Source of the DNA: an uncultured Acidobacteriota bacterium
Lineage (GTDB): Bacteria > Acidobacteriota > Terriglobia > UBA7540
Length of the DNA stretch: 64,000 nt
Direction of reading: 5' to 3'
Assembly: GCA_963804995.1 (NCBI GenBank)
Contig: CAWDSK010000006.1
Span: 1,664,001-1,728,000 of the forward strand
In this document: one piece after another, positions 4,468 through 34,944 of the stretch
Layout: each line of letters opens with the position of its first letter
Position numbering within the stretch: position 1 is the stretch's first letter
The notes under the pieces: generated by a model
Told to the model about the DNA's origin: nothing
Database searches by the model: none
Seen by the model: only the letters and a program-made list of their open reading frames with translations
Translations under genes and position numbers: made by a program

Positions 4468-4508
4468 GTCAGTTCCGTACGGCTCACGCCGTAGGTCAAG
4501 ATTGCTCA
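4468..4508 (-). promoter_or_regulatory. Tandem CRP-like operator, copy 1
   Basis: TGAGCAATCTTGACCTACGGCGTGAGCCGTACGGAACTGAC followed 18 nt later by TATAAC. Confidence 0.8.
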
Positions 4509-4565
4509 GCGCGGTGGTGGTGGGGTATGCGGTTGGTCGTGTTAAGAAGTACTCGTGCTGAAAGA

Positions 4566-4633
4566 CCCCTCACCCGTCCCGCGCCGGCTGGTGAAAACGC
4601 CGGCCGCGGTCCACCCTCTCCCCTCGGAGAGGG
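4566..4633. repeat. REP-like palindrome (CCCCTCACCCGTCCCGC...CCACCCTCTCCCC family)
   Basis: Near-identical copy at about 63247-63320; internal hairpin. Confidence 0.75.
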
Positions 4634-4741
4634 CTAGGAGCTTTCGACTGGTTTGCTGGTTAGCGGGCTGTGGTGGTTGGAGGGCCACCGCCAACGGCTG
4701 GCGCAGACCCCGGTTCTTGGGAGGGTCTGCGATGTCCCGCA

Positions 4742-5473
4742 CTAGTCATGCAGCACGACGCTCAAGAGGCCGCTGTTAACCGTCAACGCGCCGCTGCCCG
4801 CGTAATCGATAAAGCCCAGCGTCCGGAACTTGTTCATGAAATGACTGACCCGCGACCGGGTGGTGCCGACCATCTGCGCCAGGTGTTCCTGATTGATTCC
4901 GGGAAGGATGCTTTCAGCTTTGGCTTCCTTGCCATAATGGGAAAGCAGCAAGAGAACCCGGGCCAGGCGCTTCTCACTGGAGTTGAAAAGCTGATCGACC
5001 AGATCCTCCTGATATCGCATGTTGCGCATCAGCAGATGGGTGACGAACAATTCCGAGATGCCGTGCTGCTCGTGGAGCATGCGCATCATCAACTGCTTGT
5101 CGATCCTGTAAAGCGTGCAATCGCTCATGGTGGTAGCCGTGGCCATACGCACCGGCCGGCCGGCCATGCAGCCCTCGCCGAAGAACTCACCGGGGCCCAA
5201 CACGGCGACGATCGCCTCCTTGCCTTGTTGGGAGGTCACCGCGTGTTTCACCTTGCCTTGGTGGAGGTACCACACGGCGTCCGCTGGGTCTCCCTGCATG
5301 AAGATGGTGCGGCCCTCGCCGTATTCCAGAACGGTTTTCCCGCGCGACATTCCGGCCAGGAATGCCGCCCAATCGATGGGCGGAGTAATGGTGTTTACCG
5401 GGCCAGGCGTGGGCTTGCCTTGGCCGTTGCCCTTGACATCCTTAGGCTGGTTCTTCTGTCTCTGTGGTGTCAT
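4742..5473 (-). CDS. Crp/Fnr family transcriptional regulator
   Basis: cNMP-binding fold (IFMQGD...GEFFGEGC) and HTH QEHLAQMVGTTRSRVSHFMNKFR. Confidence 0.95.
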   Translation of the reverse strand: MTPQRQKNQPKDVKGNGQGKPTPGPVNTITPPIDWAAFLAGMSRGKTVLEYGEGRTIFMQGDPADAVWYLHQGKVKHAVTSQQGKEAIVAVLGPGEFFGEGCMAGRPVRMATATTMSDCTLYRIDKQLMMRMLHEQHGISELFVTHLLMRNMRYQEDLVDQLFNSSEKRLARVLLLLSHYGKEAKAESILPGINQEHLAQMVGTTRSRVSHFMNKFRTLGFIDYAGSGALTVNSGLLSVVLHD

Positions 5474-5681
5474 AAAAGTCTCTCTCTTCTTCTCGCGTCA
5501 AAACAACTTCTCATCACTGAGCTTCCTGCTCTTTCCAGGGGCCGGTGGGTTAGAAGCTTGCTCGTAAAGTTTCATCAATCTCTCTCGAGGTTGGTCTTGA
5601 TTTAAGTGTCCCCTCACGCCATCCGTGAGAGGGGTGTTATAGGACATTCGCCGGGGCTCGTCCCCGAGGCGGAAATACAAC

Positions 5682-5819
5682 TCACTTTCTTGCCGGAGGT
5701 TCAAAGGTCACGTCGGTTCCGTTCGTTTCGTCGTCCGGAGTATCTTCCTCCGCAATCTTTTTGACGATCTCCAGCGGGACCTGCTCGAAGTATGTTTTCG
5801 CTTTTTTCGTTTTGAGCAT
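5682..5819 (-). CDS. Small hypothetical protein (45 aa, not in the ORF track)
   Basis: MLKTKKAKTYFEQVPLEIVKKIAEEDTPDDETNGTDVTFEPPARK with AGGAAGGA RBS. Confidence 0.6.
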   Translation of the reverse strand: MLKTKKAKTYFEQVPLEIVKKIAEEDTPDDETNGTDVTFEPPARK

Positions 5820-6084
5820 TTAGATTTATCCTTCCTACCGCGTAAAGCCTAGCAGGCCACGATCGATACGGGTTAACTCTTTTTGAACTCTTTTATTGCC
5901 CTATTAGCGTGACGTGTTCGTTCAATTAGAGACACTTTGCAGTCCCGCCCGGTAGCGGTCTGCGCCGGTAACGGGAGCACGGGCCGGATACGTTAGCCGT
6001 CCGATTATTTACTTGCAGTCTATCGTAAGGGTGAGATACGATAGCGTAACGTATGCTTAACGTTATCGACTCGCGGAGGCGGGT

Positions 6085-6381
6085 ATGAGTCCTCAAGCAG
6101 TGAAAGAACTGGCGCATTTCAAGACGATGGAGCAAGCCAGCGTCCCGCAAGGGCGCAAGGGAAAGCACCAGCAGATCGTATCCATCATCCTCAAAGATCT
6201 CGACAAGCTGAAGGACGGCGCTGCTATTAAAGTCCCCTTGGCGGATTTGGCGGAGAGTAAAGAGAAGGTACGTTCCGCCCTGAATCGGGCCACCCGCAAA
6301 GCCGGACGGACGGTTGCCACCGCCAGCGACGCCAGCTTCCTGTACGTGTGGAACGTCAGCGAATCCCGCGAGACCCCGTAA
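6085..6381 (+). CDS. Small basic hypothetical protein, possibly DNA-binding
   Basis: GGAGG RBS; 98 aa; coding-like composition. Confidence 0.7.
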   Translation: MSPQAVKELAHFKTMEQASVPQGRKGKHQQIVSIILKDLDKLKDGAAIKVPLADLAESKEKVRSALNRATRKAGRTVATASDASFLYVWNVSESRETP

Positions 6382-6619
6382 AGCTCAAACCCCACAAGAT
6401 AGTGCCGCCAGCATTGATGTAAACCGTGTGCCCCTGCGCGCCGGAAATCAGGATAATCCCGTCCGCCCGCTGCAGTGATTCCTTCCCCCCAACGCCGTCG
6501 CGGGCGGAGTTGTTCTACTCCGTGGCGGTTGGCGCGCGTGTGGGTCGGACGCCAAGGGCTTTCGCCAACCTCCGGCCAGGCAAGCCACCCTGCCCAAGCC
6601 GCACCATCGGCCAGGATTC

Positions 6620-6707
6620 CAGGCCTGCGATCTTCGCAGCGCGCCGGCTCGACAAAGCGCTGACGAAGTACTCGCCGCACCGCGGGAGGCGGTTCGGCAA
6701 AGCTTGA
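6620..6707 (+). pseudogene. C-terminal remnant of a SYLF paralogue
   Basis: AARRLDKALTKYSPHRGRRFGKA* aligns by eye with the C-termini of both SYLF proteins in the window. Confidence 0.55.
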
Positions 6708-33285: not shown

Positions 33286-33410
33286 CACCTCCCCGATCAT
33301 CATTCACCAAACCCCTGCCGATGGCTGGCAACTCGCCGGCCGGTCCGGAAAGCGCCGGCAGGGGGCAAATACAACCTTGTTTACACTTCCGGTATATGCG
33401 CCCGGCTCAC

Positions 33411-33578
33411 TCAACCAGACATGCGCATTCCGCCGAACAGGTACAGGACTACCAGGATGATCAGGACCACGCCGACGATCCCGATGCCTCCACCCGAACC
33501 CCATCTCCGATATCCGTAATAGCCTCCACCGCCGCCGAACAGGAGCAGTAGAACGACAATTAGCAAAAGTAGTCCCAT
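33411..33578 (-). CDS. DUF3309-like small membrane protein (55 aa, not in the ORF track)
   Basis: MGLLLLIVVLLLLFGGGGGYYGYRRWGSGGGIGIVGVVLIILVVLYLFGGMRMSG; GAGGAG RBS. Confidence 0.8.
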   Translation of the reverse strand: MGLLLLIVVLLLLFGGGGGYYGYRRWGSGGGIGIVGVVLIILVVLYLFGGMRMSG

Positions 33579-33803
33579 GGGAATCTCCTCTCAGTTAGTT
33601 AAATGCTTCCACCAGAATTTCCGATTGGACTGCGCGGCCAACTGGCAATGGCCTCCTTACCGCTTCAACATTCGACGCTCCACCCTGATTCCGGCAAACG
33701 GCTTTGTGGAAAGCAGCCTCGGACGGCCAGTCGGGGTGACCAATATCCATAACCCGCGGCGCTATCCGGAGCATTCCGGAAGACGCGGGGAAGAGTGCCG
33801 CTA

Positions 33804-33974
33804 TCACGATGGATCTCTTTGGCGCGTTGCTTTGACACCCGACAGAACCCCTATGCCTAGGAAAACGATCGCGCCTACGACAATCCAGTGTGTGGGGACA
33901 TGCATCAAATGAGCGCCGTAAATCAGCCCGCCAATCACCAGCACGAATCCAACGGAGTAAATTCCAAATGACAT
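33804..33974 (-). CDS. Small two-TM membrane protein (56 aa, not in the ORF track)
   Basis: MSFGIYSVGFVLVIGGLIYGAHLMHVPTHWIVVGAIVFLGIGVLSGVKATRQRDPS; AAGGAG RBS. Confidence 0.78.
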   Translation of the reverse strand: MSFGIYSVGFVLVIGGLIYGAHLMHVPTHWIVVGAIVFLGIGVLSGVKATRQRDPS

Positions 33975-34035
33975 AACGTCTCCTTCTCACAAAACAGAGC
34001 TGCAAGACCCTGCGACCAGCGCCCGTTCACGGCTC

Positions 34036-34590
34036 TTACTGCGTGGTGGTGGAGCTGGCCTTTTGATCTCTTACTTGCAGCTCGTTCACGACCTGTAGCA
34101 CGTTCGGAACCTTTGACGCCACTTGCTCAACCTGTGCGCGCTTGGCTTGAGAACTGACCTCGCCGGTCAACGTCACGACGCCACTCTTAACGTCGTATTT
34201 GACGCCCTTGTGGAGCTTGTTCTGGATGAGGGCAGCATCCAAATTCTTGTCGATACCCGCGTCCAGGTCCGAGTTTACGGTCTTTGCCGCACCTTCGGCG
34301 CCGGGAGGAACCACAGCAATCTGGTTCGCTACAACCTGCCCAGTGGCGATTGACGTTGCGATGGATTCAGCCTGAGCCTTATCAGCGTCTGCCGCGACGT
34401 TTCCGCTCAGGGTCACGACGCCCTTGTCGCGGTCCTGTGTTACGGAGACAGCTTTGAGGCCGGCTTCATCGAGCGCTTTGCGGATGCTGTCAGAAACATC
34501 AGCCGACTTCGTAGATGTTCTTGAGCAGCCCACGATGCTCCCAACTGCGAGCAGCATGAGTATGGTTAAGCATAGCTTAAGAGTTTTCAT
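34036..34590 (-). CDS. Double BON domain lipoprotein (OsmY-like)
   Basis: Lipobox IVGC; two GVVTL(S/T)G repeats. Confidence 0.92.
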   Translation of the reverse strand: MKTLKLCLTILMLLAVGSIVGCSRTSTKSADVSDSIRKALDEAGLKAVSVTQDRDKGVVTLSGNVAADADKAQAESIATSIATGQVVANQIAVVPPGAEGAAKTVNSDLDAGIDKNLDAALIQNKLHKGVKYDVKSGVVTLTGEVSSQAKRAQVEQVASKVPNVLQVVNELQVRDQKASSTTTQ

Positions 34591-34778
34591 TGGTTTCCTT
34601 TGATCAGAGTTTTCCAGCCTGGAGTAATCGCGCTATGTAGACATCGCTGCATTTTTCCCTGGCATTTCTCGAATTCTTCCTCTCGGTACCGCAGCCTGCC
34701 CCGAACAGAGCGCCGGTTGACTTCCGACTCACAACGGAGGCGCGAGCCACTCTTCTTTTAACCTGGACTCGATTCAGT

Positions 34779-34819
34779 GTCAGTTCAGAACGGCTCACCC
34801 GTTTGGTCAAAATCGCTCA
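34779..34819 (-). promoter_or_regulatory. Tandem CRP-like operator, copy 7
   Basis: TGAGCGATTTTGACCAAACGGGTGAGCCGTTCTGAACTGAC + 18 nt + TAAAAG. Confidence 0.8.
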
Positions 34820-34903
34820 TTCCGTGATTAGGGAGTCGGCGACGTGCTGGCACGTCCGGCTTCATCCGGGAGTGCGCCACCCTCCACTATCCGGACGTCG
34901 TGC

Positions 34904-34944
34904 TGTGCAAGTTTGCTCAGCCCATTGGTCCATTCTGCACAGAC
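34904..34944 (+). promoter_or_regulatory. Tandem CRP-like operator, copy 8 (divergent partner of copy 7)
   Basis: TGTGCAAGTTTGCTCAGCCCATTGGTCCATTCTGCACAGAC + 18 nt + TATCCT; the most degenerate copy. Confidence 0.6.

Follow-up and report, generated by a model that had tools for sequence, protein, structure and literature searches.

The window analysed here is a stretch of 64,000 nucleotides from an uncultured Acidobacteriota bacterium (contig CAWDSK010000006.1, positions 1,664,001 to 1,728,000). It contains genes for two Crp/Fnr regulators and a series of promoters that share a 41-bp element, a double operator running into the -35 hexamer. These promoters belong to a real, conserved and apparently undescribed regulon, probably under class II control by a protein of the CRP family and with an unusual, abutting arrangement of the two sites. 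Eight copies of the element were reported in an initial annotation, and all lie at the coordinates and on the strands given for them, each with two units at a 22-bp period; a ninth, on the minus strand ahead of a DUF3300-DUF2950 gene pair, had been overlooked. The features are:

724..4385, minus strand: putative operon, predicted target of the 4468 site
724-1407, minus strand: sortase, in that operon
1404-2504, minus strand: acidobacterial VWA protein, in that operon
2891-3589, minus strand: 232-amino-acid protein, in that operon
3660-4385, minus strand: Gln-rich secreted protein, first gene of that operon
4468..4508, minus strand: double operator plus -35; predicted -10 at 4449-4444, start near 4437
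4742..5473, minus strand: Crp/Fnr regulator P0001, helix TRSRVSH, of the clade accompanying double sites
21130-21537: 135-amino-acid protein, signal-peptide-like N-terminus, no family
21639..21679, minus strand: double operator, ahead of the 135-amino-acid protein
23902..23942, minus strand: double operator, ahead of an RcnB-like protein at 23352-23789 (Pfam match below cut-off)
25428..25468, minus strand: double operator, ahead of CsbD (25047-25229) and a Ysc84/SYLF protein (24415-24963)
25476..26255, minus strand: divergent Crp/Fnr paralogue P0002, with helix TRLRVSH and an uncertain start codon; also among the predicted targets
26271..26849, minus strand: P0003, receiver domain plus four-Cys C-terminal domain; predicted target
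26924..26964, minus strand: double operator with an 18-bp -35/-10 spacer, ahead of the receiver-Crp operon
32055..32095, minus strand: the ninth double operator, ahead of DUF3300 (30539-31816) and DUF2950 (29498-30202)
32376..32416, plus strand: double operator, ahead of a 95-amino-acid protein with a signal-peptide-like N-terminus (32562-32849)
34779..34819, minus strand: double operator, ahead of a BON/OsmY-like lipoprotein (34036-34590); probably also drives small genes down to DUF3309 (33414-33581)
34904..34944, plus strand: double operator in flipped orientation, with -35 and -10 on the plus strand
35079-39208: PRC-barrel, HEAT, MlaE, MlaF and MlaD-OmpA, downstream of 34904

Each double operator consists of two TGnnC-N6-GnnCW quasi-palindromes with a strict 22-bp period. 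A relaxed pattern (this unit twice, plus three bases) has 8 matches in the window at no more than 1 mismatch, including the copy at 32055 and missing that at 32376; 100 dinucleotide shuffles gave a mean of 0.03 and a maximum of 1. The 19-bp unit consensus proposed at first is exact in 6 of the 16 units, and the others depart from it by 1-3 mismatches. With an iterated matrix, the 7.55-Mb genome yields 27 sites, and 34904 is also read in reverse. These score 27-61 bits (17-59 when each is left out of the matrix in turn), and the next match scores 14; five column-permuted matrices found nothing above 17 bits. The regulon was first described as local, which does not hold: the window has nine of the 27 sites, and of the 18 beyond it seven form a second cluster on contig C3 of the same genome (G000) and the others are scattered. 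When units are searched for separately, the 22-bp period appears in 28 of 33 pairs in this genome and in 126 of 128 pairs in 79 related loci (L021-L099).

The motif behaves as a promoter element. It points toward the gene that follows, as had been claimed: a co-directional gene lies within 330 nt of the predicted start at 26 of the 27 sites; on the opposite strand the count is 10 of 27, and for random positions it is 120 of 300. That it might instead be a mobile repeat was checked on the whole genome, and it is not one: mean pairwise identity over 351 pairs is 0.68 in the core and 0.27 in the upstream and downstream flanks. A mobile or REP-like (repetitive extragenic palindrome) origin would suit the grouping of the copies in a few regions and the segmental duplicate formed by 4468 and C3:699827, but it is hardly credible for copies whose flanks are unrelated and whose polarity to genes is fixed, with conserved positions interleaved with free ones and a -10-like hexamer conserved 18 nt beyond the seed alignment. 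REP-like inverted repeats occur in the window (8438-8820, 10234-10506 and 17765-17938), flanking short or decayed open reading frames (ORFs) that are presumably remnants of REP-associated transposases. The window also carries an insertion sequence with 29-nt terminal inverted repeats and a DUF772/DDE transposase (11051-12845), a UPF0236 transposase (42555-43967) and a reverse transcriptase of group II intron size (45459-46895). Elsewhere in the genome, about 25 tRNA genes in a dense array (C5:1304900-1309100) resemble mobile tRNA arrays.

The last bases of the second unit are a sigma-70 -35 hexamer, the last four positions of which match the consensus. The spacer to the -10 is 17 bp in 96 of 125 related sites and 18 bp in 25. 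In this register the proximal core centres on -41.5 and the distal on -63.5, the values first proposed. This is class II CRP/FNR geometry relative to -35 and -10: a dyad at -41.5 that overlaps the -35, and a 17-bp spacer. A TATAA-like hexamer had been placed 18 nt (in one case 19) beyond each of the eight copies; exact TATAA follows five of them (four at 18 nt, one at 19 nt), and the hexamers at 25428, 34779 and 34904 are looser. A pyrimidine-purine step peaks at the predicted -1/+1, in 15 of 24 sites of this genome that have a TA hexamer and at 66 of 109 sites in relatives.

In most cases the -10 reads TATAA and its sixth base is not T. No hexamer that starts with TATAA ends in T, either among 71 related sites or among 15 in this genome. 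T at -7 (-7T) is found in 32 of 120 double-site promoters, compared with 26 of 36 single-site promoters (a few degenerate doubles included) and 153 of 232 genomic TTGACA-N17-TA elements. Position -34 also separates the two classes, with T in 80 of 122 doubles and in none of 38 singles, all 38 of which have A. In Rhodobacter sphaeroides, according to the available part of one report, loss of -7T weakens promoters and makes them activator-dependent (PMC7703639); a -10 without -7T should therefore leave the promoter quiet unless it is activated. A CarD gene is present. Seven long sigma ORFs, of 26, were read; all are RpoD-like or FliA-like, and no RpoS-like sigma is among these seven. An extra RpoD may yet read the -10 but is not required for it, because genome G365 shows one region-1.2 match yet has 5 sites with the same -10. 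Three RpoD-like genes are found here (C6:1068769, C3:85273-87000 and C6:780435-782273), the latter two being full-length extras; the copy at C6:780435-782273 is altered in region 2.3-2.4, and a weak single site (C3:85067) lies ahead of the one at C3:85273-87000.

The two units are not equivalent. The distal unit has an AT-rich spacer; the proximal one is degenerate, continues into the -35 hexamer and is weaker, at 7.9 vs 18.1 bits on a matrix that was built from distal units and is biased to that extent. In the half-sites, positions 1, 2 and 5 are conserved and palindromic, and positions 3-4 are variable. Weak conservation at -82 to -74, just upstream of the distal site, could speculatively be a landing zone for the C-terminal domain of the RNA polymerase alpha subunit (alpha-CTD). 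About a dozen strong single units are also present in this genome, many with the same -35 continuation (C5:383514, C6:1485447, C6:1374536, C6:565897, C3:1169208, C3:402855, C6:146004, C3:838140, C3:699562, C3:683640, C3:670613 and C6:964419); these are likely a second tier of the regulon.

The envelope and stress setting first proposed is seen at the targets in the window. General stress regulons typically include CsbD, OsmY and PRC-barrel genes. Outside the window the targets are DUF5670, LolA-like, peptidoglycan-binding, outer-membrane efflux and BON proteins, a sigma-54 activator and further Crp genes; no family was found for 12 of 30 proteins scanned near those sites. The C3 cluster, with its 7 double sites, is located beside a tRNA-Arg gene (C3:668000-706000; L105, L106) and also contains trehalose synthase genes, an AI-2E transporter, a Crp pseudogene fragment and paralogues of the window genes at 2891-4385.

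P0001 and P0002 match PF00027 and PF13545 above cut-off, which places them in the Crp/Fnr superfamily. An AlphaFold model of P0001 matches CRP structures and confirms the fold only (predicted local distance difference test score 74, predicted template-modelling score 0.50, root-mean-square deviation from CRP about 14 Å, a matter of domain placement). None of the NCBIfam equivalogs (CRP, FNR, FixK, NtcA, LdrP and others) was reached, the best scores being 53-58 bits against cut-offs of 180-460. Aligned to Mycobacterium tuberculosis CRP, the recognition helix reads R180/S181/H185: Arg180 is kept, Glu181 and Arg185 are replaced. The signature of CRP proper (Arg180/Glu181/Arg185 with a TGTGA half-site) is thus absent; R/S/H is found in its place, with a TG-nn-C half-site. 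CRP positions 180, 181 and 185 set DNA specificity, according to the accessible text of PMC2677863, and the pattern of retention and replacement fits a half-site in which TG is constant and positions 3-4 vary. All 30 sequences compared keep the Glu and Arg of the phosphate cassette and, adjacent to them, Cys102; the adenine-reading C-helix positions are replaced, by Tyr/Phe/Ile and Glu/Gln. Activation of CRP by cAMP runs through Glu72/Arg82 and Thr127/Ser128. The signal here is probably not cAMP in the E. coli manner.

One perspective on the unequal units supposes that each is read by a different Crp paralogue, or that a heterodimer is required; the initial annotation had named two paralogues and suggested such a division. 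The genome in fact has nine Crp genes of the subfamily (E<=1e-40), plus fragments. The difference between the two window helices, Ser vs Leu, is real as described; Leu181, though, occurs in this genome alone; the nearest orthologues of the 25476 protein (L041, L042) carry Ser. In a tree of 128 rows (a quick IQ-TREE run), the Crp genes of this genome fall in three subclades that all share TRSRVS-H/Y apart from that private Leu181. The consistent difference between the units speaks for a paralogue per unit, as do the three subclades and the several copies in most site-rich genomes. Against this, genome G370 (95% complete) has 10 exact sites and one TRSRV-type gene, identified by its position, among 8 matches to HTH_Crp_2; G152 (98%, 2 contigs) has 1 exact site and one such gene among 6. 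As these single-gene genomes carry double sites, one protein should suffice, and overlap with the -35 explains how the units differ. A separate reader for each unit is therefore very unlikely.

The double-site label clusters in one clade of the tree (21 changes, vs a shuffled mean of 42; short contigs inflate the 'none' labels). Eight rows that form a basal subclade have the same helix, a 3-residue wing loop and no double site nearby. Over the tree (9 of 128 rows unparsed), a double site is nearby for 65 of 89 homologues whose wing loop has 4-6 residues, for 1 of 26 with 3 residues, the ancestral form, and for 0 of 4 with 7. The correlation is a suggestive lead only, because it amounts to essentially one evolutionary event. 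At C6:1375001-1376919, a double site drives a Crp gene of a second kind (helix TDRPTVS), directly upstream of a TRSRVSH gene.

Several comparisons connect the site to this clade. In this genome, the stretches reaching 35 kb from a subfamily gene or fragment make up 8.7% of the sequence and contain 22 of the 27 sites (the sites are clustered and so not independent). In an order-wide sample the exact double pattern occurs in 63 of 116 genomes of the family and in 0 of 4 others, with reversed-pattern controls near zero. Among 115 published genomes of the order (the unpublished G349, G391, G411, G340 and G315, all with zero sites, were left out), at least two exact sites are present in 45 of 55 genomes with a close Crp match (E<=1e-90), in 4 of 19 with distant matches only and in 3 of 41 with none; rho is 0.79, over kin genomes that are not independent. 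Sampling the phylum gave matches in 18 of 301 genomes, for the most part background-like singletons; canonical copies are found in G096 (3, beside two Crp genes) and G152. Of the loci around close homologues, 60 of 79 have a double site.

The unit itself goes further. In 20 loci around homologues, double sites are found in 3 of 4 with a TRSRVSH helix and in 0 of 16 with an SF/NF helix; these 16 are rich in single palindromic units (57 vs 14.0 +/- 3.8 shuffled, both strands counted), a signal that also arose from an unguided dyad count. Five plasmid loci, two of Bradyrhizobium japonicum and one each of Methylocapsa, Methylocystis and Granulicella, have 3, 4, 1, 1 and 4 single sites where 0.6-0.9 per locus are expected, so that three of the five are enriched; the Methylocapsa site sits between divergent csbD and crp genes. 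This tracking of the protein subfamily by the unit across phyla is the strongest argument that the subfamily reads it. Judged from sequence, then, the double motif goes with one TRSRVSH clade of the Crp/Fnr subfamily, which is most likely its reader. Loci with double sites labelled Acidimicrobiia or Patescibacteria were not counted as evidence of cross-phylum spread. On one such contig (C13 of G421, labelled Acidimicrobiaceae; L042, L151-L156), the last ~100 kb are 57% GC vs 66% in mid-contig, and the contig end is 66-90% identical to the genome studied here, with collinear core stretches; this record is probably chimeric or mis-binned.

A different reader would be an OmpR/PhoB-type or other direct-repeat regulator that recognizes four head-to-tail boxes (10-12-10 bp), with the Crp genes as mere targets. 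Direct-repeat identity is at least as high as palindrome identity at several positions, several Crp genes lie downstream of sites, and a 22-bp unit is also typical of Pho boxes. Yet the operator at 34904 is flipped relative to its own -35 and -10, and 8 listed relatives show the same divergent pairing of it with the BON promoter, 125-129 bp apart; half-site words are found on either side, and the single sites beside distant homologues are often perfect palindromes. Such a regulator is improbable to much the same degree as a paralogue for each unit. The sole local response regulator, P0003, was considered as a DNA binder and rejected, as no helix-turn-helix or other DNA-binding domain was found in it; nor was it found in any of 5 site-bearing genomes at E<=1e-15, in a search with no positive control. 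P0003 belongs to a five-member family of receiver plus four-Cys proteins (26271-26849 in the window, C6:1485542, C6:1195524, C3:1727201 and C1:63845), several of which are preceded by a full or decayed single site.

One mechanism would join the sequence of the sites, their geometry relative to -35 and -10, their conservation and their co-occurrence with the Crp genes. We consider it probable that a general-stress-like gene set is transcribed from weak sigma-70 promoters which two abutting Crp homodimers activate. That is, the 41-bp element would be the upstream half of an activator-dependent sigma-70 promoter, on which two TRSRVSH-clade homodimers sit next to each other, bound to 22-bp sites near -63.5 and -41.5. 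The distal site, strong and family-typical, would recruit the first dimer; the proximal site would probably be filled with help from it. The weakness of the proximal site would come from the double duty of its right end, which is also the -35 hexamer and has shifted toward a better one. The proximal dimer would then contact RNA polymerase in class II fashion, and CarD may assist at the -10 that lacks -7T. The predicted output is CsbD, BON/OsmY, PRC-barrel, DUF3309 and DUF3300/2950 proteins, the Mla transporter and small secreted proteins, and further an efflux system, a sigma-54 activator and several of the Crp genes themselves, in feedback. Binding, activation rather than repression, cooperativity and the start sites are all predictions of this scheme. 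More tentatively, and on balance doubtfully, the clade may have evolved a new activation geometry: a DNA-templated tetramer, of two dimers set edge to edge on a 44-bp operator and held by a lengthened wing loop, acting at sigma-70 promoters without -7T and with no alpha-CTD gap, and serving this widespread soil family as its general stress response in place of a stress sigma.

Some observations weigh against activation by paired Crp dimers. The pyrimidine-purine step is nearly as common at -3/-2 in this genome (14 of 24; 46 in relatives). Half-sites are asymmetric at positions 3-4, with position 3 following a 10-bp direct repeat (0.74) more than a palindrome (0.14). Among genomes with a close Crp match, 4 of 55 carry no exact site, and 3 of 41 without a match have 2-4 sites (the assemblies are incomplete). 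The co-occurrence could reflect another co-inherited regulator, since Crp genes and targets travel together in islands. Finally, abutting dimers need not co-activate: at M. tuberculosis whiB1, in the available text of PMC2844151, CRP sites lie 21 bp apart and the second site represses.

The whiB1 case suggests another logic for the same protein, the chief competitor on that point, with the distal site activating and the proximal one repressing at high activator level, as a band-pass, or with both repressing. Its precedent at a 21-bp separation (PMC2844151, as far as available) and the weaker proximal site are in its favour. Here, however, the proximal site is at -41.5, where relatives have their single sites, and not at -37.5; the class I positions given in the accessible part of PMC2844151 (-61.5, -71.5, ...) do not include -63.5; and a -10 without -7T suggests that activation is needed (PMC7703639, from the portion available). 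Repression by one or both sites is unlikely.

A literature search, in which subscription journals were thinly covered, found no published account of the site, the subfamily or the regulon; the alphaproteobacterial logos in PMC2908626, a source available in part, may show the single-site form. Acidobacteriota abound in soil, and hardly any of their transcription networks have been mapped. What emerges here is a regulon that is precise and conserved, together with a named regulator clade and point predictions open to in vitro work without culture of the host. Within one Crp subfamily there is a natural transition from single to double site, accompanied by changes at -34 and -7. This touches on the question of how adjoining dimers of the CRP family could activate, given that the E. 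coli model has no space for alpha-CTD. As members of the regulon, the many small secreted proteins that lack a name become candidate stress proteins.

Among known systems, class II and III promoters of E. coli CRP share the fold of the regulator, the 16-bp 5-6-5 core in a 22-bp site, the proximal position at -41.5 overlapping the -35, and a second site upstream on about the same helical face. They differ in the half-site (TGTGA there, TG-nn-C here) and in the triad (R/E/R vs R/S/H); identity is about 22%, and the NCBIfam CRP model scores 53 bits vs a cut-off of 266. A class III promoter has its second site at a class I position with room for alpha-CTD; here the sites abut, at the 22-bp period only, with no such gap, and a spacing of 21 bp leaves insufficient space for alpha-CTD between dimers, according to the text available of PMC2844151.

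M. tuberculosis CRP (Rv3676) provides the nearest solved structures to P0001, at about 25% identity, and at whiB1 it likewise has two nearly abutting CRP-family sites (21 bp). There a single promoter has them at -58.5/-37.5, with repression from the proximal one; the -63.5/-41.5 arrangement seen here is stereotyped at 27 promoters and conserved in the family. Closer to home are the single-site promoters of the wider TRSRV Crp subfamily in other Acidobacteriota, Bradyrhizobium and Methylocapsa, which have the same unit at the same -41.5 position and similar neighbours (CsbD, PRC-barrel, trehalose synthase, DUF3309, Ku); they have one site, A at -34 and mostly keep -7T, whereas the doubles are mostly without it. 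The CarD-activated promoters of R. sphaeroides, as described in the available part of PMC7703639, likewise have a -10 weakened by loss of -7T, and a CarD gene is found here too; the difference is that -7T is common in the ordinary promoters of this genome (153/232), and its loss is specific to this regulon.

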